A stretch of DNA of 64,000 bases from a virus (IMGVR_UViG_3300037483_000299:30090-94089); one strand, 5' to 3'; counted from the first letter of the stretch, positions 25,375 through 61,144 are shown. Numbers and translations: made by a program. Notes: a model not told the origin generated them from the letters alone.

Positions 25375-25658
25375 CGCCGGCCGAACTGACGGCGATCACG
25401 GCCGGCGTCGGCCTGTTGGGTGGCGTCGGCGGCTGGTTTCTCAAGGCCAAGACGGAGCCGAAGGCCCGGAACGGGAACGGACTGGGGAAGGAGCTTGCTC
25501 TAGCCATCACGGCCGATGGGGAACGGACCCGCCAGACGATGAAAGACGAGGGGGAGCGGACGCGGGAAAACACGGTGAGCCTCATCACGGCACTCCAAGC
25601 GCAAACGGAACTCGCGATGATCCGGGCGGCACAGATGAGCCGGCAGGGGGCGGCGTGA
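25371..25658 (+). CDS. Single-TM protein with coiled-coil tail
   Basis: N-terminal hydrophobic helix; GTGA coupling. Confidence 0.55.
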   Translation: MTPAELTAITAGVGLLGGVGGWFLKAKTEPKARNGNGLGKELALAITADGERTRQTMKDEGERTRENTVSLITALQAQTELAMIRAAQMSRQGAA

Positions 25659-25984
25659 TGGCCCGTATCCTGATTGTCGAGGATGAGGCCAGCCTGTTGC
25701 GGGTGTTGCTCACCTACTTGACGGAGATCGAGCAGCACGAGGCGGTGGGCGTGAGCACGGCCGACGATGCCCGGGACGCGGCCCAGCTGGGTCCCTGGGA
25801 CATGGTGGTCACGGATCGGATGTTGCCGGAGGGGGAGGACGGGGAACGGCTCCGGAGCGCCTTTCCCGGGACGCGGTTCCTGACCATGACCGGGGTGGAC
25901 CAGTGGGAGGCGGATGTGCGGAAGCCCTTCAGTCTCGAAGAAATTGGCGCCGTCATTCGGGCGCGCCTCGCGGTGGCGCCATGA
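25658..25984 (+). CDS. Stand-alone response-regulator receiver (CheY-like) protein
   Basis: ILIVEDE, DMVVTD..LP..DG, MTG, KPF motifs. Confidence 0.88.
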   Translation: MARILIVEDEASLLRVLLTYLTEIEQHEAVGVSTADDARDAAQLGPWDMVVTDRMLPEGEDGERLRSAFPGTRFLTMTGVDQWEADVRKPFSLEEIGAVIRARLAVAP

Positions 25985-26152: not shown

Positions 26153-26434
26153 GTGAATCCGAAACTGGAAGCGGCGAAAGAGCGGCGGCGGCTCGCGCTC
26201 ACCACGCCGGACGTGCAGAAGTTCGAGAAGTCGCTGCCCGCGATCATCGCCGCGGTGGTGCGGTTCGGCGGGCCGGAGCACTGCTTCCTGAACATTCACA
26301 GCACCGTGGCCGAGACCGGCGCGCCCGACGCGTGGTGGGAAGTGGTGCCCACGGATCGGGCGAAGCTCGCTGATGGCGAGGACCCGCCGAGCGGGGACGA
26401 GAGCCATCCGTGCCCACCCTTCCTGGACTGCTGA
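26153..26434 (+). CDS. Small protein ending DESHPCPPFLDC (candidate peptide precursor)
   Basis: GGAGGAG RBS, GTG start; C-terminal motif shared with 48290-48523. Confidence 0.7.
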   Translation: MNPKLEAAKERRRLALTTPDVQKFEKSLPAIIAAVVRFGGPEHCFLNIHSTVAETGAPDAWWEVVPTDRAKLADGEDPPSGDESHPCPPFLDC

Positions 26435-26986
26435 GTGCCGCCAGCATGGCAGGAAGTCTTTCACCTGGCCGGCCTACTCCCGCTCCTGATCCTGGGCGGG
26501 CTACACCTCTGGGGCGTCCGTCGGGATTCTCGGGACTGGTGGCTGGCCTCTGGCTTTGCCGTCTCCTGGGTGGCGGACTTGGCAGCACATTGGGCCGATC
26601 CCTGGCTCGTGTCGCACGTCTATTCCGTGGGGCAGGCGGGATGCCTGTACGGGGCGCTCACGACGCCACGCCGCGCCTCCTGGCTGCTTGGACTGACGGG
26701 CCTCGTGGCCGCGTGGTCGCTGTCTGCCGGACCCGTGACCGCGCCGGCCGTGGCGGTGTGGGTGGTGAGCGCCGGGGTGATCTTGTCCCTGATCTGGAAA
26801 CGTCGGGATCTCGGGCTCCGCTGGTGGGGGCTGCTCGCGTACTTCGGGCTCGGGCTCGCGTTCCGCGTGTGGTTCCCGCTGGCCTTGGACGATGCGGAGA
26901 CGTTCCGGGTGGCCTGGCTCGGCTATCAGGCGTGTCGGATGGCGGGCCTGTCGCTGGTGAGCTGGGCCCTCTTGAGAGGACCGTGA
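26435..26986 (+). CDS. Multi-pass (about 6 TM) membrane protein
   Basis: Hydrophobic; homolog of 48517-49044. Confidence 0.75.
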   Translation: MPPAWQEVFHLAGLLPLLILGGLHLWGVRRDSRDWWLASGFAVSWVADLAAHWADPWLVSHVYSVGQAGCLYGALTTPRRASWLLGLTGLVAAWSLSAGPVTAPAVAVWVVSAGVILSLIWKRRDLGLRWWGLLAYFGLGLAFRVWFPLALDDAETFRVAWLGYQACRMAGLSLVSWALLRGP

Positions 26987-41568: not shown

Positions 41569-42617
41569 GTGCCTGGAAGCGCGTCCCCGATGGGCCGTAC
41601 TACCTCGACTGGCAGCGACGGGGCATCGGGCGGATCTGCGTTTCCTCCGGCACGCGGCGCCTCAAGGTCTTCCGTCGCATCGAAGCGATGCTCGGGGACC
41701 TCTACGACCAGGGCCGGCTCGACGTGCTGCGGGCCATCAAAGAGCAGACGCACCCGGTCATGGTGGTCTTCGATGCGCACCGCCGGGGCCGACTCGACCT
41801 GCTCCCGCTCTCCGAATCCCTGACCCCGCTCCGGCCGGCGGTGGACGCCTGGATCGCGCGGGCGGGCGACACCGGCCGGCGCGCGGCGAACTACCGGACC
41901 GCCCTGAACCGGATGCTCCGGCACGCGGCCCGCGATCCCATCGTCCACGACCTGCCCGGCTGCGTGAAGGCGGATCGGACGGGGAGCCAGGACAGCGGCC
42001 AGGTGACCAGCCACAACCGGGCGCGCGCCGCCTGTCTCGCCTTCCTGCGGGACACGCTGGGAAAGGAGCACGCCGTCTATCGCATGGCCGTGGCGGTGCC
42101 GGCGCTGCCCCCAGCGCCCCGTGCTGACCGACCGCGCCTCTCGGTGGCCCAGGCTGAGAAGATCCGGGACCGGCTGCCTGGGGCCCTGGGTGGGGCCTGG
42201 TGGAGTCTCTGCCTCACCGGGATGATCGTCTCGGAGCTGTGGGGCGTCTGGGCCGTGCGCGCGGATCACGTCCGCATCCGGGGCACTAAGACGGGCGGCC
42301 GGGATCGGATGGTGCCCTGGGTGGCGGCGCTGGCCCGACCAGCCTGTACCCGGCGCGAGCTGTCCGCCGCCCTTACCGCGCTCGAGCTGGAGTCCTACGA
42401 CGCACGCCGGGCCTTCGCGCACTGGATGGAGGAGGCCGGCATTCCCCGTGCACGGCGGAAGGGGTACCTCGGGCACAAGCCGAGCGACACGACGGACCTC
42501 TACGAGATGGGGGACTTGAGCCGATATCTGCGGGAGGACGGGGCGAAACTCCGGGCCTACCTGGTCCGTGAGTCCCGGAAAATGTCCCAACGGACCCGGA
42601 ACCGGAGGCGGGCGTGA
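41565..42617 (+). CDS. int: Tyrosine recombinase/integrase
   Basis: TGM..SEL, GTKT, YDARR, LGH, TTDLY; adjacent tRNA-derived att core. Confidence 0.85.
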   Translation: MSAWKRVPDGPYYLDWQRRGIGRICVSSGTRRLKVFRRIEAMLGDLYDQGRLDVLRAIKEQTHPVMVVFDAHRRGRLDLLPLSESLTPLRPAVDAWIARAGDTGRRAANYRTALNRMLRHAARDPIVHDLPGCVKADRTGSQDSGQVTSHNRARAACLAFLRDTLGKEHAVYRMAVAVPALPPAPRADRPRLSVAQAEKIRDRLPGALGGAWWSLCLTGMIVSELWGVWAVRADHVRIRGTKTGGRDRMVPWVAALARPACTRRELSAALTALELESYDARRAFAHWMEEAGIPRARRKGYLGHKPSDTTDLYEMGDLSRYLREDGAKLRAYLVRESRKMSQRTRNRRRA

Positions 42618-42780
42618 AACGGGCTAAGTCGTTGTGGCGTAAGGATGCGCCGACCGGGACTCGAACCCGGAACCAACTGATTAAGAGGGAGTCGCCCACC
42701 ACACAACAGGCGGCAGGACAGGGCACGGACTACCGGAAACCGCCCGAACCGTCGCCGAAAGTCCCGCACTTTGTCCCAAC
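42571..42780 (+). repeat. Arm-type direct repeats AGTCCCG-N5-TGTCCCAAC (42571-42591 and 42760-42780) flanking the att core
   Basis: Two 21-bp copies with identical spacing. Confidence 0.7.
42646..42687 (-). other. att core: 3' half of tRNA-Lys(CTT)
   Basis: Minus strand CTCTTAATCAGTTGGTTCCGGGTTCGAGTCCCGGTCGGCGCA gives anticodon loop, T-arm and acceptor 3' strand; 5' half absent. Confidence 0.88.
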
Positions 42781-42837
42781 CGTTTCCGCCTCGCGCACGG
42801 GAAACAGGGCGAGCCGGGGCCACGCGGGAGAGAGGGC

Positions 42838-43536
42838 GTGAGCCTCACCCCCTACTACGAGGCGGACGGCATCACGATCTACCACGGAGACTGCCGGGAA
42901 ATCATGCCAGAAGTGGCGGCAGCCGACCTCGTAGTCACCGATCCTCCGTATACGTTCGGCTTGGCGTCAACGAGTGGACGCCTAGGATGGGGCGACCTGA
43001 TGAACGCAGCCACGTTCTATGCTGACATTCTGCGCTCCGTCCGGCGTCTCACGGCAACAAGGAATGGCGCGGCGTGGCTGTTCAACTCGTGGCGAACGTT
43101 CCCCGTGATCGCTCGCGCGGCGTGGGAAGCTGACTGGCCTGTAGTGTCTTTGCTGGTGTGGGACAAAGGTCCGGAGGTTGGCATGGGCGGGAAAGTCGGC
43201 CTGCGGGCACAGTATGAGTTGTGCGCGTTGTTCGCCCAAGAGGGATTCTCAATCTCGAATCGTTCAGCAAAGGACATCGTGAACGTGCCTTGGGGTGGTT
43301 CCGCGCCCCGGGAATACCACGCCGCCCAGAAGCCCGTCGGTATCATAACGCACATCCTGAGCGTCAGTCTGGACCATGCTGGGTTAGTGCTCGACCCTTT
43401 CATGGGCTCCGGCACAACGCTTATTGCCGCTCGCACCGCTGGGCTTCCGGCCATCGGCATAGAGATTGAGGAGCGGTACTGCGAGATCGCGGCGGAGCGG
43501 TTGAGCCAAGGAGTGCTCAACTTGGGGGCCGGATGA
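42838..43536 (+). CDS. DNA amino-methyltransferase (N6-A/N4-C, beta class)
   Basis: TDPPY, H..QKP, VLDPFMGSGTT. Confidence 0.92.
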   Translation: MSLTPYYEADGITIYHGDCREIMPEVAAADLVVTDPPYTFGLASTSGRLGWGDLMNAATFYADILRSVRRLTATRNGAAWLFNSWRTFPVIARAAWEADWPVVSLLVWDKGPEVGMGGKVGLRAQYELCALFAQEGFSISNRSAKDIVNVPWGGSAPREYHAAQKPVGIITHILSVSLDHAGLVLDPFMGSGTTLIAARTAGLPAIGIEIEERYCEIAAERLSQGVLNLGAG

Positions 43537-43913
43537 CTCCTCACCCCAAGCCCGCGCCCCGCGCTCCCCAGGAGCCGAAGCCCCTGAAACGTCGGTCCTG
43601 GATCGCCCGGGGGAAGCGCCCGAAGGCCCGGAAGGTCACCAAGGGGGGCCGGAACACGATGCCGGAGAAGATCGCCTGGCTCCATGAGCAGGGTTGTGCC
43701 GTCTGTGGTGCCCGGCCCGTCGAGGTCCACCACGAACGCCGCCGTGGAGGCCGAGCAGACGACCGGCAGACGATTCCCCTCTGCCCCGCCCATCACCGCA
43801 CTGATCGGAAATCCCGCCATGTGCTTGGGGGCTATGGATTTGAAGTGTGCCACGGGGTTTATCTGGACGGCCTCTGTGCGGAGTACCAGCGACGATGGGA
43901 GGACCGGTTCTGA
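43533..43913 (+). CDS. HNH-like/DUF968-type putative nuclease
   Basis: CAVC..VEVHHER..DD..TIPLCP.HHR; paralog of 229-615. Confidence 0.7.
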   Translation: MTPHPKPAPRAPQEPKPLKRRSWIARGKRPKARKVTKGGRNTMPEKIAWLHEQGCAVCGARPVEVHHERRRGGRADDRQTIPLCPAHHRTDRKSRHVLGGYGFEVCHGVYLDGLCAEYQRRWEDRF

Positions 43914-44247: not shown

Positions 44248-44685
44248 ATGGGCCGTCCCCGCAAAGAGCTGACAGGTGAGCAGGTCGAGCAAGTCGAGAA
44301 GATGGCCGGCCATGGCCTGACCCTCGACCAGATCGCGGATTGCTTGAACATCGGCGAGCGCACCCTTGAACGGCGCTTCTCCGAGGACACTGTGGTTCTG
44401 GCGGCCTATAAGAGGGGTAAGGCTGTTGCCATCAATGCAGTAGCGAAAACGGTCTATCAAAAAGCCGTTGCCGGCGAGGGCGCCTTCCCGTTCTTCTACC
44501 TCAAGACCCAAGCCGGTTGGCGCGAAACGAACCGCATGGAGGTAACCGGTGCCGATGGCGGCCCCGTTCAGCAGCACGTTACGACCGACAGTCCCCGGGA
44601 GTGGATCGAAGGCGAGTTGGCTCGCATCGCTGCCCGCCAAACAACGGTCCCGCATTCTCAGTCGGGTAACGGACGAGGCGCTTGA
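44248..44685 (+). CDS. terS: Terminase small subunit
   Basis: GRP...GLT..QIA..L.I...TL, FYLKT.AGW.ET...E.TG.DGGP. Confidence 0.85.
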   Translation: MGRPRKELTGEQVEQVEKMAGHGLTLDQIADCLNIGERTLERRFSEDTVVLAAYKRGKAVAINAVAKTVYQKAVAGEGAFPFFYLKTQAGWRETNRMEVTGADGGPVQQHVTTDSPREWIEGELARIAARQTTVPHSQSGNGRGA

Positions 44686-45943
44686 TGCCCTCCGGTGGGA
44701 TTGGCGATTCTGGGCTCGTCCTAACCAACTGGAACCCCCGGGCGACTGGGCTCTCTGGCTTCAGATGGCCGGCCGCGGCTTTGGGAAGACCCGCACTGGC
44801 TCGGAATGGATCAGCGAGCGGGTCGAGACGGGGAAGATGCGGTCGGGGCTCCTCATCGGAAAGAACCCGCGCGACGTGCGGGACTACATGCTGTACGGGG
44901 AATCGGGGCTCCTGAGTGTCGGTCCTCTGGAGAAGCGTCCTACCTACGAGCCCTCGAAACTCCTGCTCACTTGGCCCAACGGGGCCCAGGCCATCGTCCG
45001 CTCGGGGGAAGACAAAGACGTGCGGGGCCCGAACCTGGATACGGCATGGTTCGATGAGATGGCGGCCTGGCAGTACCCGCGGGAGACCTTTGAGATCGCC
45101 ATGCTGGGGCTCCGAGCAGTCCGGCATGGGACAGCGACCCAGGCTGGTGTTCGGTGTCTGGTCACGACAACCCCGAAGCCGATTGGTATCCTCAAGGAAC
45201 TGGTCTCGGCTTCCTATGTCGTGGTTACGGGCGGCACGACCTACGAGAACCTGGTCAACCTGGACGAGCAGTTTCAGCGGCTCGTGGTGGCGAAGTATGA
45301 AGGCACTACACTTGGGCAACAGGAACTCTACGCCCTGCTGTTGGAGGAAGCCGAAGGGGCGCTATGGACGCGCGAGCTACTGAATCGCACACGGGTTCGG
45401 GAAATGCCGTGCGAAGCCAAGCGTACGGTGATTGCGGTCGATCCGGCCATCTCCAAGAAGCAGGAATCCAACGAGACGGGCATTATCGCGGTGAGTCGGG
45501 GGACAGATGACCACGGCTACACTCGGGCGGATCGGTCCGGACGGTTCTCCCCTGAGGGGTGGGCGCGCCGCGTGGTACAAGCCTATGAGGACTTCAACGC
45601 GGATCGCGTGGTGGCGGAAGCGAATCAGGGTGGTGACATGGTAGAGCATACGCTTCGCACCGTGGCCCCGAACATCCCCGTCCGATTGGTTCATGCCTCG
45701 GATGGGAAGCGGACCAGGGCTGAGCCCGTGGTATCCCTGTTTGAGCAGGGCCGCGCCCACCATGTCGGGCTGTTTGAGGAGTTGGAGGATCAGTTATGCA
45801 CCTGGGAACCCTTGGGCGATATGCCAAGCCCTGACCGCCTGGATGCGGAAGTCTGGGGCTACACTGAACTATTCCCAGTGAAGCCCGTGGTTCATGCCTC
45901 CCCGGGTGGGGTGTCCCAGAAGAACCCGTGGGCCATCGCATGA
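44549..45943 (+). CDS. terL: Terminase large subunit
   Basis: AGRGFGKTR, RGP, WFDE, TTTP, VDP, E.NQGG, SPDRLDA. Confidence 0.93.
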   Translation: MPMAAPFSSTLRPTVPGSGSKASWLASLPAKQRSRILSRVTDEALDALRWDWRFWARPNQLEPPGDWALWLQMAGRGFGKTRTGSEWISERVETGKMRSGLLIGKNPRDVRDYMLYGESGLLSVGPLEKRPTYEPSKLLLTWPNGAQAIVRSGEDKDVRGPNLDTAWFDEMAAWQYPRETFEIAMLGLRAVRHGTATQAGVRCLVTTTPKPIGILKELVSASYVVVTGGTTYENLVNLDEQFQRLVVAKYEGTTLGQQELYALLLEEAEGALWTRELLNRTRVREMPCEAKRTVIAVDPAISKKQESNETGIIAVSRGTDDHGYTRADRSGRFSPEGWARRVVQAYEDFNADRVVAEANQGGDMVEHTLRTVAPNIPVRLVHASDGKRTRAEPVVSLFEQGRAHHVGLFEELEDQLCTWEPLGDMPSPDRLDAEVWGYTELFPVKPVVHASPGGVSQKNPWAIA

Positions 45944-47667
45944 CCCACATGACCCGCAAGGCCGATCCCGGGTTCGCCGGTCAGCTCGCGGCCTTGGCCG
46001 GCGGTCGGCTTGCCCCTATCGCCCGCATCGGGCCGATGGTCGAACTGGGCACCACGGGCTTGCGGCGGACTGGTGGGTTCATCTCCGAGGAACGGTTGCC
46101 CCAACTCTCTGGGGACAAGGCCCTCGCCGTCTACCGGGAGATGCGGGACAACAGCTCTGCCGTTGGGGCGCTGCTATTTGTCCTTGAGATGCTGGCCCGC
46201 GGAACCGGCAAGCGCGTTGAGGCGGGTGGGGAGTCGAACGCTGACAACCAAGCTAAGGAACTGATCCTTTCCAGCCTGGACGATATGTCCATGTCCTGGC
46301 CCGACACGCTCTCGGAGATCCTGTCGTGTGCGGTCTATGGATTCAGCTACCATGAACTCGTCTACAAGGTCCGCCAGGGGCAGCAGTCGGAGCCTGGGAA
46401 GTCCAGTCACCATGATGACGGGTTCTTGTCGTGGCGGAAATGGCCGATCCGCGCGCAAGAGACGCGGTGGCGTTGGGAGTTCGCCGACGATGGCGGGCTG
46501 TCCGGCATGCACCAGCTCGATCCGGCCACGGGCACCTATGCCTTCATCCCACTGGATAAGGCGCTCCTCTTTCGCCTGTTCGCGTACAAGAACAACCCCG
46601 AAGGCCGCAGCTTACTGCGGAATGCCTACCGGCCGTGGTTCTTCCTCAAGCGGATTCAGGAGTACGAGGCCATCGGGATTGAGCGGGATCTGGCCGGCTT
46701 GCCGGTCATGCGGATACCGGCGCAGGTCATGTCCGATGATACCCAGATGGAGAAGTGGAAGAAGCTCGTTGCCGACATCAAGCGGAATGAGCAAGCGGGC
46801 GTGGTCATTCCCTCGGACATGTACGGCGATACCGATAAGCCGCAGTACGAGTTGACCCTGCTTACGAGTGGGGGCGAGCGGCAAGTCCCCACCGATCCGG
46901 TAGTCAAGCGGTACGAGTCCGACATCCTCAAGACGGCCATTGCGGACTTCATCCAGTTGGGCAACCAGGAAGTGGGCGCCCGGTCGCTGGGCGATACCAA
47001 GGCGCAGCTCTTTGCCACCTCCGTCAACGCGCTGTTGGACAGTGTGGCCGGCGTCATCAACCGCCATGCGATTCCCCGGGTCATGGCGCTCAATGGCCTC
47101 GCCGTAGAACAGCCGCCGCACCTCGTCTTTGACGATGTAGAGTTCGAGGATGTAGTGGGATGGGCCGAAGCCGTCGCCAAGATGACGGGGGCAGGCATGC
47201 CACTCTTTCCTGATCCCGTGGTGGAAAACGTGGTGCGAAGTAAACTCGACTTCCCCGAATTGACGGAAGACGAGATCGAGCAACGGAAGATCGAGGACGA
47301 GCAGCGGGCCCAGGAACAAGAGGCGATGGACCGTGAGGCGGCCAAGACGGAACTCGATGGCGCGCGTGCGGAGATGGAACGCACGGGGGCCGATGCGGAG
47401 CGGATGCGGGCAGAAGCCCGCCGACCCACCAAGACGGAGAAGGCGGTCATGATCCATACCGGCATGATGGATATGCCCACGGCTATCAAGGAACTCAAGC
47501 AGGCAATTGCGCTCCATGAGCAACACCTTGAGGGCACCGCGCCCACCACGGGGACCGCCGGGCGGCGGTCGCAACTGCGGATGATGCGGATGATGGAGCG
47601 GGCGTTGACGGCGTTGGGCGTCCCGGATGAGGACGAAGACGGGGAAGGAAAAAAGGGGATGCCATGA
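45940..47667 (+). CDS. Portal protein (DUF935/Mu gp29-like)
   Basis: ELG.TGL, YGFS.HE.VY, NPEGRSLLRNAYRPW, GIERDLAGLP. Confidence 0.88.
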   Translation: MTHMTRKADPGFAGQLAALAGGRLAPIARIGPMVELGTTGLRRTGGFISEERLPQLSGDKALAVYREMRDNSSAVGALLFVLEMLARGTGKRVEAGGESNADNQAKELILSSLDDMSMSWPDTLSEILSCAVYGFSYHELVYKVRQGQQSEPGKSSHHDDGFLSWRKWPIRAQETRWRWEFADDGGLSGMHQLDPATGTYAFIPLDKALLFRLFAYKNNPEGRSLLRNAYRPWFFLKRIQEYEAIGIERDLAGLPVMRIPAQVMSDDTQMEKWKKLVADIKRNEQAGVVIPSDMYGDTDKPQYELTLLTSGGERQVPTDPVVKRYESDILKTAIADFIQLGNQEVGARSLGDTKAQLFATSVNALLDSVAGVINRHAIPRVMALNGLAVEQPPHLVFDDVEFEDVVGWAEAVAKMTGAGMPLFPDPVVENVVRSKLDFPELTEDEIEQRKIEDEQRAQEQEAMDREAAKTELDGARAEMERTGADAERMRAEARRPTKTEKAVMIHTGMMDMPTAIKELKQAIALHEQHLEGTAPTTGTAGRRSQLRMMRMMERALTALGVPDEDEDGEGKKGMP

Positions 47668-48002
47668 TCCCCCGCCTCGTGGCCCTCGCCCTGCTGGCCG
47701 TGGTCGTGATGATCGCGGCCGGCCCGCTGCGCCCCCTCTACCAGAAGGTGGAGGCGTGGACTTGGAAGCAGGACGAGCGGACTTGGGTGGCCCACGGGAG
47801 CATCCTGTTAATGGTGGGATTCTCTACGGCGGTGCTGATCGGGTGGTTCGGTCTCGGGTTCACCGGCTGGGGCATGGGCTGGTATGCACGGCGGGAGAAC
47901 GTGTTTACCGCCGAGCCGATGACGACGGACAACTGGATGGACTTCCTGGCCCCGCAACTCGGGGGCCTGCTGGGGTTCGCCCTGGGGCTGGTGGTCCGGT
48001 AA
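47664..48002 (+). CDS. Membrane protein, near-identical to 25036-25374
   Basis: Direct sequence match. Confidence 0.75.
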   Translation: MIPRLVALALLAVVVMIAAGPLRPLYQKVEAWTWKQDERTWVAHGSILLMVGFSTAVLIGWFGLGFTGWGMGWYARRENVFTAEPMTTDNWMDFLAPQLGGLLGFALGLVVR

Positions 48003-48205
48003 TGGTCACGGCGCTCTGGTCGCTCGCCGGGGCCATCTTGGGGACGTTGTTCCTCTACGTGACGATTGACCGCGTGCTGCGGAAGCATGGCGACCCGCGT
48101 CTCAGCCAGCGGGTCCGACGGCTGGAACAGGCGCACCGCCAACAGGAGCGGCGGCTAGAAAAGGTAGAGGGTGTCTTGCGACTGTGGCCGACGCTCCGCC
48201 CATGA
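48002..48205 (+). CDS. Single-TM protein with coiled-coil tail
   Basis: TM then RV.RLEQ...RLEKVE. Confidence 0.55.
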   Translation: MVTALWSLAGAILGTLFLYVTIDRVLRKHGDPRLSQRVRRLEQAHRQQERRLEKVEGVLRLWPTLRP

Positions 48206-48289
48206 TGGCGCTCTTGGCCGCCTTCGGGCTCACGATGGTTGGTGGCATGGTTGTCCTCTGGTATCACCTGTGGTGGAAAGGACGGTCGT

Positions 48290-48523
48290 ATGATTCAGGT
48301 CGCCCGGCCGGTCGAGTTCTGGGAGTTCGACCACGAGACGAGTACCAAGATCGTGGCGGCGTTCCTGTCGCAGGGAGCGGAAGCCCGTTTGCGTTTCACG
48401 CCCTCTATCTCCGAGCGCGGCGTGCCGATGCTGGACTGGTCGGTCCCCGGCGGCCCGCATACGGAAAGCAGCCATGAGGACCCCGGCGGTGACAACTCCA
48501 CGGTCTGTCCCCCGATTTGCTGA
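48290..48523 (+). CDS. Small protein ending DNSTVCPPIC (candidate peptide precursor)
   Basis: AAGGA RBS; motif shared with 26153-26434. Confidence 0.7.
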   Translation: MIQVARPVEFWEFDHETSTKIVAAFLSQGAEARLRFTPSISERGVPMLDWSVPGGPHTESSHEDPGGDNSTVCPPIC

Positions 48524-49044
48524 CCGGGTTCTCGTGGGTCTGCGTATTCGCGGGGCTCGTGCCGTTGGCCGTGCTGTGGCTGGAACGGCGACGCGGGTAC
48601 CGACGTGTCTGGTGGCTCCTGGGCACGGCGTTTTCCGTGTCCACCGTGGCCGATCTCGCCCGGACATTCGGCGCCCCACCCTGGACGGTCTCGGCGGTGT
48701 TTCCGCTCAGCCAGTTCGGCTTCCTCTTTCTGGCGCTGGCGGGATCGTGGACGGCGGCGGCGCTCTTGATGGGACTCGCCACCCTTGCAACCTGGGCGGT
48801 GCTGCGAGGTGCGTGGGAGCGACCCGACGCGACGCTCACGGTGGCCGGAGGGATGGCTGTCGTCGGGTTGTTGTCTCGGGCACCGTCCCGGACCCGCTTC
48901 GCGCTGGCCGTCTACTTCGGGCTCGGCGCGGCGGCGTGGTTCTGGTACTGTACCGATCCCGGTACCGCTCCCTACTTGGTCTACCAGTGGTGCCGGTTGA
49001 TCGGCCTCGCGGCGGTGACCGTGGAGGTGTGGCGTGAACACTGA
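48517..49044 (+). CDS. Multi-pass membrane protein
   Basis: Homolog of 26435-26986 (AGL.PL, F.VS.VADLA, YFGLG, YQ.CR). Confidence 0.75.
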   Translation: MLTGFSWVCVFAGLVPLAVLWLERRRGYRRVWWLLGTAFSVSTVADLARTFGAPPWTVSAVFPLSQFGFLFLALAGSWTAAALLMGLATLATWAVLRGAWERPDATLTVAGGMAVVGLLSRAPSRTRFALAVYFGLGAAAWFWYCTDPGTAPYLVYQWCRLIGLAAVTVEVWREH

Positions 49045-49309
49045 ATCCATCGTCATGCTCATCCTGAGCGGCGTGGTCACCGTGGTGGGCGGCATCCTGA
49101 TCCTGATGGGCCGGTTTGCCCTCACGCGCATGGATGAAGCCCTGAAGGACATGGCCGAATTGAAAGGCGCGGTCCTTGGGGTCGAAGGCAGAGGCGGGTT
49201 GCTCCAAGAGATGGAACGGCTCCGTGATTGGCGGAACGATGACGTGTCGCCGATGCTGGCGCGTCACGAATCAGACATCGGCCAGCTCAAGCAGGACCGG
49301 AACCGATGA
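49034..49309 (+). CDS. Single-TM coiled-coil protein
   Basis: GGAGG RBS, TM plus heptads. Confidence 0.55.
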   Translation: MNTESIVMLILSGVVTVVGGILILMGRFALTRMDEALKDMAELKGAVLGVEGRGGLLQEMERLRDWRNDDVSPMLARHESDIGQLKQDRNR

Positions 49310-49527
49310 AAGACAACTTCACCAAGATCGTGCGGAAGGTCGCACTCGCCATGTTCGTGGTGACGGTGCTCGGCGGGTTGGCAGGCTGGGTACTTGGGCG
49401 TGACCCCTCGGTCCTCACTGGGCTGATGGGCTTCGTGACCACCGCGCTCTTTGTCGGCGAAGCCAGCAATATCGGGAAGAGGGCGACGTTCAAACCAGAA
49501 GCAGTAGTACCGGAGGCGACACCATGA
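49306..49527 (+). CDS. Holin-like 2-TM protein
   Basis: Two TMs, GKR.T then PEATP tail like 26988-27275. Confidence 0.5.
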   Translation: MKDNFTKIVRKVALAMFVVTVLGGLAGWVLGRDPSVLTGLMGFVTTALFVGEASNIGKRATFKPEAVVPEATP

Positions 49528-50549
49528 AATCGGCCTGGCTCATCGCGGTCCTGCTGGCACTCAACAGTCCCCTGCACGCGCAGGACACCGTTCAGGTCCG
49601 GCCAGGGGCGATGGTTTGCGGTGGCTGGGTGGTGCCCGACACCACGCCCGGGACGGTGTTCCGCTGCCAGGTGAACGGGCCGAACGACATGCGCCGGGTG
49701 CGCGCGGTTGTCGTTGTGGTCGTGGTGGACAGCGTGCCGGCGCCACCACCACCTCCTCCACCCCCACCGGTGGACACGGTGAAGCCACCGCCACCGCCAC
49801 CTCCGCCACCGTCAGATACGGTGTCGAGCGGCTGGCGCGAGGTCTTCCGGGATGACTTCGAGACGGGCAACCTGACGCTTGCCACGGGCGGATACCGTTG
49901 GGGCGGCTCGAGCGCGGGACAAGGGGATGGCCGGCCAGCGGTCGTGACTGCGGCGGCGCATTCCGGCACCAAAGCCTTGCGGTTCACCTTTGCCGGGAAT
50001 GCGAATCTCGCGGATGATGCGTGGAGCGAGCAGCGGTTCGTCTTGGGGGACACGCTCAAGGCTGTCCGGCTGGAATGGTGGATCTTCCTACCGCCAGACT
50101 TCACGATCCGCAACGCCGACGGGCCGGACAACAACAAGTTCCTGCGCCTCTGGGGCGGCGATGAGACGGACGGCAACAACGGCTACAGCCGCTTCCGGGT
50201 CAAAGCTGGCTACTCGTTCCAGCTCGGGCCCCAGATCATCGCGGAATCCGGGACGGCGAGTCGTGCCGTCGGACCGCAGGGGTTGACCGGCTGGCGAGGA
50301 TTACCGGCGCTGGGTCGTTGGGTGCCCATCGCCGTCGAAGTCACGGTCGCCACGGCGACGACGCCGGGGACGATGCTGCTCTGGGTGGACGGCCAACTGG
50401 TGAGTGTTAATCGGGAGAACGTTGCCATCTATCCGACGGGCGGGACGGGAAACTGGTTCAGGCACGGCTATCTTCTCGGGTGGGCGAACTCTGGATTCAC
50501 CCAGACCACGACTGTCTACATCGACGACTTCACCGTGCGGGTGCGGTGA
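49524..50549 (+). CDS. Secreted protein with poly-Pro linker and polysaccharide-lyase/LamG-like domain
   Basis: Signal peptide; DDFETG...NNKFLRLW...LWVDG...YIDDF. Confidence 0.75.
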   Translation: MKSAWLIAVLLALNSPLHAQDTVQVRPGAMVCGGWVVPDTTPGTVFRCQVNGPNDMRRVRAVVVVVVVDSVPAPPPPPPPPPVDTVKPPPPPPPPPSDTVSSGWREVFRDDFETGNLTLATGGYRWGGSSAGQGDGRPAVVTAAAHSGTKALRFTFAGNANLADDAWSEQRFVLGDTLKAVRLEWWIFLPPDFTIRNADGPDNNKFLRLWGGDETDGNNGYSRFRVKAGYSFQLGPQIIAESGTASRAVGPQGLTGWRGLPALGRWVPIAVEVTVATATTPGTMLLWVDGQLVSVNRENVAIYPTGGTGNWFRHGYLLGWANSGFTQTTTVYIDDFTVRVR

Positions 50550-54612: not shown

Positions 54613-55027
54613 TCTTGCTGTAGAGAGTCAGGTGTTTGGCGGGGATCGGGTTCCGCACGATTATGAACGGCTGATCGGCATGCCATTCCCACTGTTCGCC
54701 ATTCAAGAGTGTAAATGTCCCGCGATGACCAGCCGTTGTTACGCTCTTAACTCCATTATCCAGAAGCACTTGTCCAGTCTGGGTCAATATGTCGGACTCT
54801 TTGAATCGTGCCCTTATGACCACTAGGCTGCTAGTTCGATGTTTGGTCATTGCCCAGAGAGCTTGGCCTAGTCCCGTCAATCCTGTCTGGGGTTCAGGCC
54901 AACACCAAATACCCTGATCTATGTCCAAGAACTCAGTGATTCGTGGTTGCTGGAGTGGGTAAGGTTTGAGTCCATCCCGCTTGATCGTTTCCCACGCTTC
55001 AGCGGTGGTATAGTGATAGCCGATCAT
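54545..55027 (-). CDS. Hypothetical protein, possible ADP-ribosyltransferase-like fold
   Basis: YHYT......I...GLKP N-terminus, IP..L near C-terminus; lower GC. Confidence 0.45.
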   Translation of the reverse strand: MIGYHYTTAEAWETIKRDGLKPYPLQQPRITEFLDIDQGIWCWPEPQTGLTGLGQALWAMTKHRTSSLVVIRARFKESDILTQTGQVLLDNGVKSVTTAGHRGTFTLLNGEQWEWHADQPFIIVRNPIPAKHLTLYSKITLAEERQAEPFRWFRLSTPPA

Positions 55028-55506
55028 GAGCTCAACCGAAACCACCGCAGGGCCGTTACCCAGCGACCGTCCCGCCAGTAGGCTTCCCGAGCCTCCCCTT
55101 CCTGAGTGAAGCCAGCCTCCAGGAACACTAGGGCCCGGCGGTCGGTCAGGGTGTCGGTGTATAGGCGGTGGAGGCCCAAGACGTTAAAGCCGTGATGTAT
55201 GAGTGCGGCGAGAGCGTCCGGCTCAAGGTTGGGCAGCGCCATGCAAGCGACCTCGGCGCTCCGGTTCACCCAATCTAGATTCGTCAACCCGACGATGCCG
55301 AGAGCGGGACCATCACAGACATAGTAGCCATCCCAAACGTAGTACCGCATGGTCCGGCCCCCGTCTGCGGTCAGCCGCTCATACCATGCCTCTTGATCGG
55401 CGAGGGTGAGCAGCCGCCGTTCCCGGACGTGGCTGTAGACCTCCGGGCTGTTCCGTAGGTCCCGTATCCACGGCAGGTCGTCCCGCTCAATGGGGCGCAA
55501 GATCAT
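55024..55506 (-). CDS. GNAT N-acetyltransferase (PseH/RimJ-like)
   Basis: LRPIE.DDL..I..LRN, GF..LGLHRL, GF..EG..RE. Confidence 0.85.
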   Translation of the reverse strand: MILRPIERDDLPWIRDLRNSPEVYSHVRERRLLTLADQEAWYERLTADGGRTMRYYVWDGYYVCDGPALGIVGLTNLDWVNRSAEVACMALPNLEPDALAALIHHGFNVLGLHRLYTDTLTDRRALVFLEAGFTQEGEAREAYWRDGRWVTALRWFRLSS

Positions 55507-55549
55507 TCGACACCATCATACCGCCCCACCAATCGGGGCAAGGGGTTGC

Positions 55550-55738
55550 TCACCCTAGCCCAGGATCGGAACGACCGTAAAAAATCCAGGCCGATCCCAC
55601 TAGGGCGATGACAGCGCCGATGCCCAAAGCAAGAACGCCGGCCCATCCAGCCCTGAAAAAAACGGCACCCACCCAGCTGCCGAGCACTGCTCCAAAGACG
55701 ATAGCGGCGAACAGATCGAGCGTGTCTCGTATGGTCAT
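55550..55738 (-). CDS. Small 2-TM membrane protein
   Basis: Hydrophobic; coupled. Confidence 0.5.
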   Translation of the reverse strand: MTIRDTLDLFAAIVFGAVLGSWVGAVFFRAGWAGVLALGIGAVIALVGSAWIFYGRSDPGLG

Positions 55739-56394
55739 GGCATCTTCTCCGCTACCCGGCGGATCAAGGCCAGGTCTTCGGGGGTGTCGAGCGAGAGGTG
55801 GGGCACTGTCTCCGGTAGCACCGTGTAATGGCCATCTGCCGCGAACATGAGTCGAATCCATGGCGTCACATGTTCCCGGTCGTGGGGCTCAGTGGCCAGC
55901 GCATCGGCCACGTACAGCGCCGTCGCCGTGAACACCTCCACGTCGAAGCCTGACGGCACGGTTCGTACCGGGTAGATGTTGGACACGTACATAGCCCCGG
56001 TATCGAGGAGTCGCTTCACCTGCCCTTGGATGGCGACGGGATCAACGAGCGGGCAATCCCCGGTGATGCGGACTACCACGTCAGCCTTGTACTCACGAGC
56101 ACAGGCGGCATAGCGGTTGAGCACGTCATTCTCCGGGCCGTCCCACTTGAATACGGTAGAGAGGCCCGGCCTGAGGATGACTGGGGAGTCACCTAACCGG
56201 AACCACTGCAAGATCGTAGCCTCAAGTTCACTGTCCGTGGCCGGAATGGCAATAACGACGTGGTATCCCGCTTTGCGCGTTCGTCTATAGACTGTGCAGA
56301 TGGTTGACGAATCCCTGATTGTCTCCAGTACCTTCCCCGGAAACCGCTGTGAGGCCATGCGGGCCTGGATGATGCACACGACGTTGGGGGTCAT
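55735..56394 (-). CDS. SpsF/PseF-like cytidylyltransferase
   Basis: IIQARM.S.RFPGKVL, G.E.DVL.RY, RITGDCPL.DP, REHVT, SLDT.EDL. Confidence 0.9.
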   Translation of the reverse strand: MTPNVVCIIQARMASQRFPGKVLETIRDSSTICTVYRRTRKAGYHVVIAIPATDSELEATILQWFRLGDSPVILRPGLSTVFKWDGPENDVLNRYAACAREYKADVVVRITGDCPLVDPVAIQGQVKRLLDTGAMYVSNIYPVRTVPSGFDVEVFTATALYVADALATEPHDREHVTPWIRLMFAADGHYTVLPETVPHLSLDTPEDLALIRRVAEKMP

Positions 56395-56666
56395 GGTGTA
56401 TGCCAATCCTCTGCGTCAGGCTCAGCCCGGTCTTGTAAATGTTCGGCACGTTCCAAGAGCGCGCGTTGGCGGACTAAGAGTTCTTCGTAGGCGGGATTCG
56501 GGGTCATCCTTCTGGTGATGGTGTTGATGGATCCAATTAGCTGTACCGCCGCTGCTTCAAGGAAAGACAGATCGCAAGCAGTTGCGGTCTCGCGTACTTC
56601 GTCAGCGATCACCTTGAAGATGCGGACGTTCTCGGCCCGCTTGGCGGCCACTTCCTCATCAGTCAT
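56391..56666 (-). CDS. Hypothetical protein
   Basis: Coupled helical ORF. Confidence 0.5.
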   Translation of the reverse strand: MTDEEVAAKRAENVRIFKVIADEVRETATACDLSFLEAAAVQLIGSINTITRRMTPNPAYEELLVRQRALLERAEHLQDRAEPDAEDWHTP

Positions 56667-57220
56667 CGGATCTCCCGGATAATCTGGAACGGTTCAGCGT
56701 AGTCGCACATAGCGATGGCGCCCCAATTAGTGGCGCGGACCCAAAGTTGTTGGCTATTACGTGGGTGAGGCATTGGTTTTTGCTCAATAGTGTAGGCGTC
56801 CATCTCCATCATCTTCTGTTGGACATGCTCGGCCGTCAACTCCACAAACAGGTTGGGTGTGAACCGCTCATGCCACCAGTCGCTTGACCCCGGCACCTCC
56901 CCGCACCAGATGGCCCCACGATAGGTGGTCGGTCTGGCCGCCGCCATGACGGCCTCGAAGATGACGCGATGGTCCTTGTTCACGTCGGCCGGATGGTGGG
57001 TGATGACCACGGTAGGCTGGTGCGCCGTGATCGCCTGTTCTACCTGCCGCGTCCAGTTGATGAGCGGTTCATTGTCGAACATGTGGTCCGTGCCATCTTG
57101 CCGGCCCTTGTTCCCGAACCACACGTCGCCTCCGTACTTGGCCAGCGTCCCGCCGGCCAGCAACACCTCATCATCGGGATGCGCGGCGATTACGAGGATG
57201 CGCGGCAGAACGTCAGCCAT
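56663..57220 (-). CDS. PIG-L/LmbE-family deacetylase
   Basis: AHPDDE..GGT, THH..D...DH, AE.F. Confidence 0.88.
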   Translation of the reverse strand: MADVLPRILVIAAHPDDEVLLAGGTLAKYGGDVWFGNKGRQDGTDHMFDNEPLINWTRQVEQAITAHQPTVVITHHPADVNKDHRVIFEAVMAAARPTTYRGAIWCGEVPGSSDWWHERFTPNLFVELTAEHVQQKMMEMDAYTIEQKPMPHPRNSQQLWVRATNWGAIAMCDYAEPFQIIREIR

Positions 57221-57774
57221 TCCTCAAACTCCTCATCTCTCGCAATGGTGAGGCCCGGCTTTTCAGCGCGGGCCAAGTCAAGGCAGATTCGCGCGGCCAT
57301 CTCGACCCGCATAGCCGTCCACTCGGGTAGCGGCTGATCGGGCCAGAAGGATTCACCTCGGAGCATGGCGCGAGTGGCGTTATACATGAGCCCGGAGCGC
57401 CGCGGGGGCCCGTAGAGGCCGGGGAAGCGGACAACGTGGGTACGGTTGCTCCCAAGGCCAAATGGTGGGTCCTTCGTCAGTAGTTCTTCCGCAGCTCGCT
57501 TCTGGTCGGCATACTCGCTGCCTTCAGCTCGCGTGCTGACAAACACGACGAATGACGGTCGCCAATCCACAAGGCATTCGGTTAGCAACCAGCCGAGGCC
57601 GATCATGTCCGTTGCGGGCGGCATTGGCCATGCAGCGTGGATCACAACACGCCGCTGATACCATCTGCGTCCAAGGATGCTCCAGTTCTCCCGAGGGACC
57701 GGCACCACGTCGGACCCGCCGAGCCTCATGATGTGTTGGCCCAGATAGCCCGAGGCCCCGGTGAGGTAGATCAT
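57190..57774 (-). CDS. NAD-dependent epimerase/dehydratase-like protein (short)
   Basis: TGASGYLG, HAAW, Y..QK.AAE, R.PGLYGP. Confidence 0.75.
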   Translation of the reverse strand: MIYLTGASGYLGQHIMRLGGSDVVPVPRENWSILGRRWYQRRVVIHAAWPMPPATDMIGLGWLLTECLVDWRPSFVVFVSTRAEGSEYADQKRAAEELLTKDPPFGLGSNRTHVVRFPGLYGPPRRSGLMYNATRAMLRGESFWPDQPLPEWTAMRVEMAARICLDLARAEKPGLTIARDEEFEEWLTFCRASS

Positions 57775-58583
57775 GCGATCACTGTCCTCCAGTACCGTCT
57801 CAAGGTGAGTCCCACCGTATGCCGCACCCGTGTCGTGCCTTCCCCATTCCAGATGGCCAGTGGATCGGCCCCTGCGTGTACCGCTAGGCATGTCGTGGTG
57901 CTCGGTCGGGGATTGATCTCGAACGGTAGGAACGCCGTTCCGTTGTCTATCCCTTGGATGTTGTACGTCCCACTGGTCGGTACGGCGCGGTGGATCGCCT
58001 CACACGCCGCCACGACACGGGGATTGTCGTCCGTCACCCCGTCGAGCGTGATGCCCCGTTTCCGCACGACGCGCACCGGCACCACGGCCCGCAGGTTCTT
58101 GAACTGATCGGCCATCATCTGGACGGTGTACTCCTGGCCGTGCACCACGTCCTGCTCGACCAGCACGTCCCGGGAGCCACGGCCGTACCGGGGCTTGGTG
58201 AGCGTGGTATGGGGAACGGGAATCCCCCGCTCCCGGAGACAGCGGATCGAGCCGAACTTGTCCAGCATGACCGAGACAAACCATTGATCGGGAAGGAGGA
58301 GCTTCACGCCCTCAAAGAGCCGGAGCCGTTCGATGATCGGCAACTCCTCATCTACCGTGGGGATCACCAACCCGATGCCCCACTCGCGCACCAGCTCTAG
58401 CAGCGTGGTACAGTAGGCGGGATCACTGGCCAGTGGGATGGGCACCCGGTAGCGCGGAGGAATGAGCGGATCAATCGCCTCGGGGTTGGCGTCGGCCACC
58501 CAGACATCATGGAGTTGAGCGCGCCAGTAGTCCCAGAGGGGCACCGTGCCCGCGCCGCCACCACCGGTCAGCAGGAGCCTCAC
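57771..58583 (-). CDS. ATP-grasp ligase (CarB/PylC-like, sugar-cluster type)
   Basis: IPTVDEEL, DK, KPR.GRGSR, EYTV, FEINPR. Confidence 0.85.
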   Translation of the reverse strand: MRLLLTGGGGAGTVPLWDYWRAQLHDVWVADANPEAIDPLIPPRYRVPIPLASDPAYCTTLLELVREWGIGLVIPTVDEELPIIERLRLFEGVKLLLPDQWFVSVMLDKFGSIRCLRERGIPVPHTTLTKPRYGRGSRDVLVEQDVVHGQEYTVQMMADQFKNLRAVVPVRVVRKRGITLDGVTDDNPRVVAACEAIHRAVPTSGTYNIQGIDNGTAFLPFEINPRPSTTTCLAVHAGADPLAIWNGEGTTRVRHTVGLTLRRYWRTVIA

Positions 58584-59524
58584 GCGCACTCCTTGACGGC
58601 CTGTACCACCGTGCCGATTTCCTGCTCGGTCAGGGTAGGAAACATCGGGATGCTGACCGTCTCGGCGGCGTACTTCTCCGCATTGGGCCACATGCCGGGC
58701 TCGTAGCCGAAGCGTTGCCGATAGTAGGGCTGCAATGGGATGACGGGGTAGTGAATTGCCGTCCCCACACCACGGGCAGCCAGCCGATGGCGGAAGGCGT
58801 CGCGGTCAGGATGCCGGAGCCGGTAGAGATGCACCCAGGACTCCGGAGATCGGGGTTCCACGGTGAGACCAGTGAACTCAGCATCGTATTGTTCTGCGAT
58901 GCGGCGCCGTATGTTTACGCCAGTCAGGACGCGGGCTAGTTGGGACCGGGCCAGTGCGGCAGATAGCTCCGGCATCCGGTAGTTGTAGCCGAGTTCCACC
59001 ATTCTGGTGAGGACTCGGCCATGTGAGCGCAATAGGCGGCATTTGTCAGTTATCTGCGGGTCATTGGTGACGATGGCCCCGCCTTCCCCAGCGGCAACGT
59101 GCTTCGCGGGATGGAAGCTGAAACAGGTCGCCAAGTAGTCCGGTGGAAGCGTGAGCGGGCCGTGGCAGGCATCCAAGACTTCTGCTGGCAGCGATGCCGC
59201 TCCTGCGGGTTCACCGCCCAAGGTAGGAAGCAAGGTATCCTGAAACATGGGTACAATGCCCGCCATGAGCATGGTGTTGGCTGTCGCCACGAATGAGATA
59301 GCGGGGCAATGGCAATAGCGTCGGCCTATTGCTCTTAGGGCTAGATGCAGCGCCGCCGTCCCCGAGTTCACCGCCACCGCGTACCGGGCTCCGGCAAACG
59401 TGGCCAGTTCGTCCTCGAAGGCTTCCACCTCTGGCCCCTGCGTGAGGTAGCCGGATCGCAAAGCCCGGAGAACCGCCGCCTCGTCCTCGGGCGTGATCGC
59501 GTGACGGGTGTACGGGATGGTCAT
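58580..59524 (-). CDS. pseC: DegT/PseC-like PLP sugar aminotransferase
   Basis: LTQGP.V..FE, NSGTAALH, SFHPAKH..GEGG, LGYNYR. Confidence 0.88.
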   Translation of the reverse strand: MTIPYTRHAITPEDEAAVLRALRSGYLTQGPEVEAFEDELATFAGARYAVAVNSGTAALHLALRAIGRRYCHCPAISFVATANTMLMAGIVPMFQDTLLPTLGGEPAGAASLPAEVLDACHGPLTLPPDYLATCFSFHPAKHVAAGEGGAIVTNDPQITDKCRLLRSHGRVLTRMVELGYNYRMPELSAALARSQLARVLTGVNIRRRIAEQYDAEFTGLTVEPRSPESWVHLYRLRHPDRDAFRHRLAARGVGTAIHYPVIPLQPYYRQRFGYEPGMWPNAEKYAAETVSIPMFPTLTEQEIGTVVQAVKECA

Positions 59525-60399: not shown

Positions 60400-60414
60400 G
60401 AGGGACGCTTGCGA

Positions 60415-60436
60415 TGTTGACGTTCAAACGTCAACA
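60415..60436. promoter_or_regulatory. Inverted repeat TGTTGACGTT-CA-AACGTCAACA in the divergent intergenic region
   Basis: Perfect 10-bp arms in 52-bp gap between pseB and formyltransferase. Confidence 0.7.
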
Positions 60437-60451
60437 GGGGCACCGTGAGCT

Positions 60452-61144
60452 ATGCGCGTGTTGTTCTTGGGGCCGCCGGGTGGATCGAACAAATTGGCCG
60501 GCCGGGTCTATCGCTGGCTCTCCACGCAGCCGGTGACGCTCTCCGCTCCGATCATGGATAAACTGGACACGGTAGACGGGTGGGAGCTGGGCGTGTCCTG
60601 TGGGTACGTCCACCGCGTGCCTGGGCCCATCCTGGCCGGCCTGCCCATCGTCAACCTCCATACGGGCTACCTGCCGTGGAATCGGGGCCGATTCCCGAAC
60701 GTCTGGCCTATTCTGGATGGCTCGCCGGCCGGGGTCACGCTGCATTGGATGGACGCCGGGATAGACACCGGGCCGATCCTGGCTCAGGCGCGGGTCACGG
60801 TGGAGCCGTGGGACACGGCGGGGACGTTGTACCGGAAGCTAGAGACTGCGGGCTTCGCGCTATTCCGGGACAACTGGCTGGCCGTGATGAGCCGGTCTCC
60901 GGGGGTGCCGCAACGCGGACCAGGGACCACCTACCGAAAGGAGGACCTTGAGTTAGTGCGGGCATCCCCGGAGACGCGGTTACCAGTCAGGCGGGTGCTG
61001 GACATTCTGCGGGCGCGGAGCTTCCCGGGCTACGGGCTGCGGATCACAGAAGCGGACGGGACGGAATGGGAGGTGTCGGTCGAATGCCGGCAACTTGGGC
61101 CAAAACCGCAAAATGACAAAAGGTCGAAGCCTCTTGACGGTTAG
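60452..61144 (+). CDS. Sugar N-formyltransferase
   Basis: NLHTGYLPWNRG..PN.W, GVTLH.MD.GIDTG.I. Confidence 0.88.
   Translation: MRVLFLGPPGGSNKLAGRVYRWLSTQPVTLSAPIMDKLDTVDGWELGVSCGYVHRVPGPILAGLPIVNLHTGYLPWNRGRFPNVWPILDGSPAGVTLHWMDAGIDTGPILAQARVTVEPWDTAGTLYRKLETAGFALFRDNWLAVMSRSPGVPQRGPGTTYRKEDLELVRASPETRLPVRRVLDILRARSFPGYGLRITEADGTEWEVSVECRQLGPKPQNDKRSKPLDG

Follow-up and report, generated by a model that had tools for sequence, protein, structure and literature searches.

The subject of this analysis is a pair of overlapping genes at positions 48,290-49,044 of a 64,000-nucleotide (nt) stretch of viral DNA (IMGVR_UViG_3300037483_000299:30090-94089; hereafter the window), which comprises bases 30090-94089 of a 94-kb IMG/VR record (64% G+C). 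The first gene encodes a small protein with a cysteine-containing C-terminal tail and the second a seven-transmembrane (7TM) protein; we call them unit B, a second such pair, unit A, being present elsewhere in the window. Our principal finding is that unit B represents an allele of a module of two genes conserved among uncultured tailed phages: it is homologous to unit A, its two genes are adjacent in all ten contexts compared, the module is widespread, and in the relatives it is embedded in a cluster of small membrane proteins that ends in a peptidoglycan hydrolase. We tentatively propose, with a confidence that falls somewhat short of even, that the pair controls lysis as a device akin to antiholins or lysis regulators. 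The original prediction for this locus had instead seen in the pair a co-diversifying signal and receptor, with A and B as specificity types comparable to the agr pherotypes that could provide co-resident phages with separate channels.

The ten contexts with DNA comprise the phages carrying units A and B, a prophage in a Planctomycetota metagenome-assembled genome (MAG; L013), which was retrieved with a hand-made DNA pattern, and seven IMG/VR contigs (L017, L018 and L021-L025) recovered by two alignment-based scans. In every one of them the small gene lies directly upstream of the 7TM gene, the start of the latter being placed between -21 and +13 nt relative to the stop of the former. In unit B the two overlap by 7 nt, with the TGA of the small gene inside the start of the 7TM gene (TTG at 48517; junction TTGCTGA). 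As a small protein with a Cys-Pro...Cys tail is found upstream in all ten cases, the pairing goes far beyond chance, and the data support the view that the two genes form a functionally linked, translationally coupled unit. The 7TM proteins with a known partner are spread across a family tree of 75 sequences; hence, the partnership appears to be ancestral to the family. Further, the pairwise similarities of the 7TM proteins and of the N-terminal domains of their partners are correlated (Mantel r 0.64; equally high in 2 of 5000 permutations), a co-divergence which physical linkage alone would also predict. Both genes are under purifying selection: relative to a near-identical metagenome contig (L004), the small gene of unit A displays 5 synonymous versus 3 non-synonymous codon differences and its 7TM gene 23 versus 12.

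The module is found in uncultured phages: a tblastn search against 50,697 cultured phage genomes gave no match to the pair, and among 401 Planctomycetota and 401 Chloroflexota genomes the sole match was the above MAG itself. Two hand-made DNA patterns yielded no match in IMG/VR, and of five matches to a similar pattern in the GTDB genomes one was true.

The gene neighborhoods of the relatives point to lysis. In the Planctomycetota prophage the order is a phrog_5880 protein, a 745-aa protein, a TM-coil protein (a TM helix at the N-terminus, then a charged helix of coiled-coil-like character), the small protein, the 7TM protein, a 107-aa membrane protein and an Amidase_2 protein (expect value (E) 1.5e-17); beyond these are a 178-aa protein with terminal TM segments and then replication genes and an integrase on the other strand. 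This stretch closes the late operon, as lysis cassettes do. The phrog_5880 protein is also found upstream of the cassette in phage A, directly adjacent to it, while in L013 it is one gene further away. Other relatives encode different hydrolases: an Rv2525c-like glycoside hydrolase two genes past the 7TM gene in L018 (E 1.5e-17), and, after the 7TM gene, GH108 in L023 (E 1.2e-23) and Peptidase_M15_3 in L025 (E 3.6e-12). Thus, the pair is one to three genes upstream of a peptidoglycan hydrolase in four relatives (L013, L018, L023 and L025), with a fifth (L022) having a sub-threshold Peptidase_M15_4 match after the 7TM gene. Small membrane proteins directly precede the hydrolase in L013, L018 and L023, and TM-coil proteins of the same build as the one upstream of unit B precede the pair in L013, L017, L018, L021, L023 and L024; a TM-plus-coil gene also follows the 7TM gene in L022 and L023, as it does in unit B. 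Further small membrane proteins are found beside the pair in L021 and L024, and L017 is truncated downstream by the contig end. Judged by the clustering of small membrane proteins beside a hydrolase, L013, L018, L023 and L025 have the pair in a lysis cassette. The cassette of L021 additionally shows an HNH_3 endonuclease gene (4627-5166) inserted directly after the 7TM gene. As for the cassette as such, its genes overlap, a promoter-like site is lacking, and sites resembling terminators are as frequent as in shuffled sequence or less so, a pattern which fits co-expression with the late genes.

Turning to the two units of the window itself, that of phage A belongs with a terminase (1222-2763) and a portal gene (4381-6753), and that of phage B with an integrase-like gene (41529), a methyltransferase, an HNH gene, a terminase (44549-45943) and a portal gene (45928-47667). 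These two different terminase/portal sets on a single 94-kb contig, with short shared segments that are 78-96% identical (window 1-600 versus 41629-43901), could represent tandem prophages or an assembly join. BLASTP comparisons show that the pairs are diverged homologues: the 7TM proteins share 35% identity over 150 aa (E 3e-12), with the motifs listed in the original prediction present in the alignment, and the small proteins 28% over 85 aa (E 2e-4). An alternative TTG start at 48239 would give a 94-aa version of the small protein of unit B; a gene call on another contig (P0171) specifies a near-identical protein of 77 aa. We also confirmed that these diverged genes are set between highly similar flanks. 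Self-BLASTN found only two such segments, both short: 25032-25372 versus 47661-48000 (89.2% identity, 341 nt) and 27476-27719 versus 49552-49795 (89.1%, 247 nt). At the protein level they correspond to a 112-aa membrane protein (94% identical) and the first 61 aa of the secreted proteins (90%). The remaining small genes between the flanks likewise differ or are non-homologous; hence, the whole interval of ~1.5-2 kb is mosaic, and the pair, while indeed diverged, is not singled out as had been supposed.

This mosaicism extends to the presence of the pair. It is missing from two IMG/VR records with the same flanking membrane protein (L005 and L006), indicating that it is optional. One of these, L006 (IMGVR_UViG_3300037483_000243, 6001-7439), is closely related to phage B, the downstream 196-aa proteins of the two being 96% identical; its gene order is portal, 119-aa membrane protein, TM-coil protein and 94-aa membrane protein, and it lacks both the pair and the secreted enzyme. 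The 94-aa protein is 90% identical to the product of 26988-27275 of phage A, which indicates shuffling of the cassette. Accordingly, the A/B difference fits ordinary mosaic exchange between phages and not separate communication channels. The absence of the pair from L005 and L006, the mosaic nature of the region and the location directly after the portal gene in phage B would all also be expected of an accessory membrane module unrelated to lysis, for instance one for superinfection exclusion or envelope remodelling, which rides in a variable region of the late operon. We regard this as unlikely: the pair lies repeatedly beside four different endolysin families in unrelated phages, it has no PADLOC match, and the above-noted lack of a promoter-like site and of an excess of terminator-like sites is unlike a moron expressed in a lysogen.

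To characterize the 7TM protein, we searched 1.84 billion cluster representatives with a HMMER profile and recovered 302 of them at E<=1e-3 and 146 at E<=1e-10; the family thus comprises at least 302 clusters. The best 150 of the 302 representatives are only 63-234 aa long, implying that none of these contains a fused output domain. The 7TM protein of the module, 170-195 aa long and predicted to reside in the inner membrane, itself has short loops and no such domain. Across 64 aligned members S42, D46, Q66, Q157 and R160 are invariant, and P16, Y62, P63, F134, G135, G137, Y156 and G163 nearly so; there is no invariant Cys or His, the only frequent Cys being present in 24 of the 64. An AlphaFold2 model of the unit B protein, built with the family alignment, has seven helices and not about six (predicted local distance difference test score (pLDDT) 95.7; predicted TM-score (pTM) 0.89), and the counts of Lys and Arg per loop in the family indicate an N-out/C-in topology. 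In the model, the conserved polar residues are predicted to cluster in the outer half to the middle of the bundle, with the Ser and Asp contributed by helix 2, a Tyr and Gln by helix 3 and a Tyr, Gln and Arg by helix 7.

Structural comparison with VIA-align retrieved a designed GPCR (G-protein-coupled receptor)-like fold (Z 13.9, root-mean-square deviation 3.0, 174 aligned residues), class C GPCR TM domains (Z 11-11.6), and rhodopsins and ACER3 (Z about 9), although helical bundles reach such Z values by arrangement alone. Hence, without claiming homology, we describe the modelled protein as having a compact, receptor-like architecture with a GPCR-like helix order. Foldseek searches of the PDB and BFVD with the model gave nothing at E<=1e-3, the weak matches being limited to 7TM membrane proteins from phages of Gordonia and Mycobacterium. 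Neither protein of the pair belongs to a family in Pfam, NCBIfam, PHROGs or PADLOC, PDB sequence profiles gave nothing useful for them, and in the ESM Atlas the 7TM protein led to unnamed clusters only and the small protein to nothing usable. A single member among the 64 gave a sub-threshold match to the 7TM region of histidine kinases (HisKA_7TM, PF16927; E 0.0022, 18.3 bits versus a cut-off of 28.6). This family and the GPCR- and rhodopsin-like folds resemble our modelled 7TM protein in their seven helices, N-out/C-in topology and buried polar cluster displaced outward; they differ from it in that the best 150 representatives have no fused kinase or other output domain and that the retinal lysine is absent. 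Three specific candidates were rejected on the basis of missing residues, namely a microbial rhodopsin (no helix-7 Lys), a DsbD/CcdA-like thiol relay (no conserved Cys) and a PAQR/hemolysin-III hydrolase (no conserved His).

The same cassette context could also be read as that of a direct effector of lysis: the 7TM protein would itself be a holin of unusual type or otherwise disrupt the membrane, and the small protein would chaperone or tether a lytic enzyme destined for export. In mycobacteriophage Ms6 the small Gp1 is a chaperone of LysA; the size and cytoplasmic location of our small proteins would suit such a role, and neither A nor B yielded a canonical endolysin. This alternative is nevertheless improbable in our estimate, given that separate small holin-like proteins adjoin the hydrolases in most contexts, that the packed bundle with its buried polar cluster resembles receptors, enzymes or transporters more than proteins that form holes, and that the A and B enzymes carry their own Sec signal.

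The small proteins are 64-102 aa long in the ten contexts, and an alignment of 11 members of the family reveals a common build, with a modestly conserved N-terminal domain, a variable acidic linker and a conserved C-terminal motif. The N-terminal domain is modelled by AlphaFold2 as a helix and a beta-hairpin (pLDDT about 80); a fold search gave a best Z of only 3.0, and a word-index search reached just four clusters. The best-conserved portion is the C-terminus, with the consensus N-[DE]-S-H-x-C-P-P-x-C: of the four invariant columns, three (Cys, Pro and Cys) fall within the last eight residues, as do two of the four near-invariant ones (Ser and Pro). Unit B, ending in E-D-P-G-G-D-N-S-T-V-C-P-P-I-C, has the most diverged version, in which Thr-Val replaces His-x. 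The N-terminus is not hydrophobic in any of the small proteins, and a hydropathy scan detected neither a signal peptide nor a hydrophobic segment in that of unit B. The model therefore favors a folded-domain protein with a tail over a peptide precursor. An o-spanin identity was rejected, there being no signal peptide or lipobox.

A precursor-like build can nonetheless be discerned in the folded or leader-like N-terminal part, in the Gly-rich acidic junction and in the Ser/Thr and two Cys residues at the extreme C-terminus. Along with the tight coupling of the genes and the invariant polar residues within the bundle, which are potentially catalytic, it raises the alternative of a system like those of the ribosomally synthesized and post-translationally modified peptides (RiPPs), wherein the small protein would be a leader plus core and the 7TM protein a membrane-bound maturase or exporter, acting on the Cys-Pro tail by modification or cleavage. 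We consider this quite improbable, as a conserved core with a variable leader-like part reverses the situation in most RiPP families, the 7TM protein has no invariant Cys or His, Pfam and NCBIfam find no known RiPP enzyme family nearby, and a lysis cassette is atypical of RiPP clusters.

The tail also bears on the interpretation with which the locus was originally presented: the small protein as the precursor of a cyclic Cys-Cys peptide, the 7TM protein as its receptor, and A and B as pherotypes for co-resident phages. Several of its elements stand. The two genes are a linked unit that co-diverges, the 7TM protein has a receptor-like fold with a conserved polar pocket towards the periplasmic side, and the stretch enclosed by the two cysteines differs in residues and length, the translations of B and A reading C-P-P-I-C and C-P-P-F-L-D-C, respectively, as had been reported. 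A stand-alone receiver (REC) domain protein in two of the ten cassettes and the sub-threshold match to the histidine-kinase 7TM region could likewise be taken in its favor. The proposed test of co-phylogeny, however, gave a divided answer: while the N-terminal domain co-diverges with the 7TM protein, the type of loop does not track the 7TM clades. B and L018 have the same C-P-P-I-C loop and are separated by a branch with 99% support in the Shimodaira-Hasegawa-like approximate likelihood ratio test (SH-aLRT), whereas L017 and L018 fall in one well-supported 7TM clade (53% identity in local alignment) and have different loops. L017 and L024 share a C-P-G-S-P-G-C loop, suggesting that loop architecture may be partly inherited, with the relation between these two not settled in the 10-sequence tree. 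This comparison of loops with clades rests on ten pairs and is not decisive; still, it gave no sign of discrete specificity groups.

Other features of the pair speak against such pherotypes. Conservation in the small protein is highest in the tail, the opposite of agr and arbitrium peptides, in which the signal is what varies; the protein lacks a signal peptide, and no export or processing gene was found. Neither a kinase nor a DNA-binding output lies beside the pair, a histidine kinase being absent from all ten contexts. The location is a late-operon lysis cassette and not a region of the lysis-lysogeny switch, and relatives of phage B do without the pair. Staphylococcal agr (the precursor AgrD, the membrane peptidase AgrB with its catalytic His and Cys, and AgrC/AgrA) does offer a parallel in having a small product, with a cysteine close to its C-terminal part, beside a polytopic membrane protein of ~180 aa, with allelic variants. 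The gene order in agr is reversed with respect to our pair, which has neither an amphipathic leader nor the thiolactone geometry, and the conserved Cys-containing part of the pair contrasts with the hypervariable agr signal. The 64 members of the 7TM family have no AgrB match in Pfam or NCBIfam and no invariant His or Cys. As for arbitrium (AimP/AimR), the small protein has no N-terminal signal and the 7TM partner no tetratricopeptide repeat (TPR) match. Taken together, we hold the pherotype hypothesis to be very improbable.

Returning to lysis control, a mechanism can be envisaged in which the 7TM protein would act as a sensor that reads the state of the membrane or periplasm via its polar pocket. 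The small protein would serve as its cytoplasmic adaptor, with the acidic linker facing the basic cytoplasmic loops of the 7TM protein and the Cys/His tail potentially acting as a redox- or metal-sensitive switch. Together, the two might set the time at which the neighboring holin-like proteins fire, and some phages may have added a CheY-like receiver to the module.

Candidates for the latter are the stand-alone REC proteins of phage A and L025, two phages that otherwise differ. That of L025 (4890-5219; 109 aa) scores 44 bits against a PF00072 cut-off of 30.2 and lies between the 7TM gene and the M15 endolysin; it shares 37% identity (E 4e-17) with that of phage A, whose gene is upstream of the pair and in which a direct reading finds the acidic pocket (E-D), the phospho-acceptor D and the T and K positions retained. 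As previously noted, no REC gene accompanies unit B: Pfam detects no receiver domain in its scanned genes, and the unscanned 67-aa open reading frame (ORF) at 48003-48205 is too short for one. The REC protein is an optional member of the cassette and not part of its core, yet no accident. In a more elaborate version of the above mechanism, the 7TM protein would be a GPCR-like sensor of a periplasmic or membrane cue, conceivably material from lysed neighbors or a superinfecting phage, that delays or triggers the holin via the Cys-tailed adaptor and, in some phages, the CheY-like receiver. Units A and B would then be non-cross-reacting sets by which two phages in one cell time their lysis independently. 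We deem this receptor-gated switch rather unlikely.

Several observations weigh against a role in lysis control. Neither protein is homologous to a characterized holin, antiholin or spanin in Pfam, NCBIfam, PHROGs or PADLOC, and adjacency to lysis genes is not proof of a lysis role. In the window, no recognizable endolysin follows the pair, the slot being occupied by a secreted polysaccharide-lyase-like protein, and in phage B the cassette directly follows the portal gene, which is unusual for lysis genes. The Z values of the structural matches of the 7TM protein, 11-14 over all 175 residues, can be attained by helical bundles through arrangement alone. Finally, the His and Ser of the tail are not invariant (Thr-Val in B, Arg-Arg in L018 and Ala in L025), which weakens the case for a simple metal site.

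Among known systems, the antiholin-type regulators come to mind. Lysis by phage T4 involves the holin T, the periplasmic RI and the small cytoplasmic RIII. To our knowledge, holins and antiholins have one to four TM helices and not a packed seven-helix bundle, and we know of no lysis regulator with a C-terminal Cys-Pro-Pro-x-Cys. In phage N4, gp62 and gp63 are a lysis regulator and a pinholin (PMC12642591). Like our pair, the T4 and N4 systems combine small soluble cytoplasmic and membrane proteins in or beside the lysis cassette that are thought to set its timing, and their components are diverse and phage-specific; they show no sequence or profile similarity to the pair. The chromosomal CidAB/LrgAB systems consist of holin- and antiholin-like membrane proteins under the control of the LytSR two-component system. 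Here too a polytopic membrane protein is tied to lysis control, with a receiver protein at some loci; they differ from the pair in being chromosomal rather than phage-borne and in having no Cys-tailed partner, and no homology was detected.

The neighbors of unit B are collected with both pairs in the table below.

Table. Genes of the two units and the neighbors of unit B; coordinates refer to the window.
Feature	Position	Strand	Length	Properties
REC, stand-alone receiver, copy A	25655..25984	+	109 aa	Sub-threshold Pfam Response_reg match (27.1 bits versus a cut-off of 30.2)
Small partner, copy A	26153..26434	+	93 aa	Tail S-H-P-C-P-P-F-L-D-C
Seven-helix membrane protein, copy A	26435..26986	+	183 aa	
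Membrane protein, conserved left flank	47664..48002	+	112 aa	94% identity to 25036-25374, 55-68% to L005/L006 homologues; hydrophobic segments
TM-coil protein	48003..48205	+	67 aa	N-terminal TM helix, then charged coiled-coil-like helix
Small cytoplasmic partner, copy B	48290..48523	+	77 aa	ATG start; predicted helix + beta-hairpin domain, acidic linker, C-terminal S-T-V-C-P-P-I-C; no TM segment
Seven-helix membrane protein, copy B, unnamed family	48517..49044	+	175 aa	TTG start
TM + coil protein	49034..49309	+	91 aa	N-terminal TM helix, coiled-coil-like region; no family match
Small membrane protein	49306..49527	+	73 aa	Resembles holins only in size, position and hydrophobic stretches
Secreted protein	49524..50549	+	341 aa	Signal peptide, poly-Pro linker, polysaccharide-lyase-like domain

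The membrane protein of the left flank has no match in Pfam, PHROG or PADLOC. The holin-like candidate preceding the secreted protein displays two hydrophobic stretches in its sequence, one of which was flagged by the hydropathy scan. The secreted protein matches the Pfam Polysacc_lyase domain (E 1.7e-7; 31.8 bits versus a cut-off of 29.9); its counterpart in phage A (27418-28530; 370 aa) is 90% identical to it in the signal and poly-Pro part and has a different C-terminal domain. As no Amidase_2, T4-type Phage_lysozyme or SLT domain was detected across the whole 94-kb record, the membrane-protein cluster together with this secreted enzyme is the only lysis-like region identified in A and B.

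An additional ORF at 48194-48477, with a convincing N-terminal TM helix, overlaps the small-protein gene of unit B out of frame by ~190 nt; it might be either a gene for a short membrane peptide whose frame stays open or a spurious extension. The relatives have a second TM-coil gene at the matching position. Further downstream, a Pfam scan of 55024-62561 identified a DegT aminotransferase, Polysacc_synt_2, NeuB, CTP_transf_3, PIG-L, a formyl transferase and an ATP-grasp protein. Judged by these domains, the viral contig probably encodes a pathway for sugars of the nonulosonic-acid type.

For the pair we could find neither a family name nor a solved structure, and neither a homologue in a cultured phage nor a paper that describes it; our literature search returned nothing comparable on 7TM proteins in lysis cassettes or on receiver domains with holins. 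We would class the pair as a new component, or variant, of phage lysis cassettes, with a proposed function. The lysis cassettes of uncultured phages are poorly understood beyond the paradigm of holin, endolysin and spanin. In this regard, the two-gene signature of a 7TM protein with the invariant polar set and a partner with the N-[DE]-S-H-x-C-P-P-x-C tail is a marker of the lysis cassettes of ten or more phage lineages, and the secreted lyase-like proteins of A and B are candidates for unconventional lytic enzymes. If the pair indeed governs the timing of lysis, it would represent a new class of lysis regulators with a receptor-like architecture, and would offer a handle for annotating the lysis regions of phages of Planctomycetota and of other GC-rich environmental bacteria.

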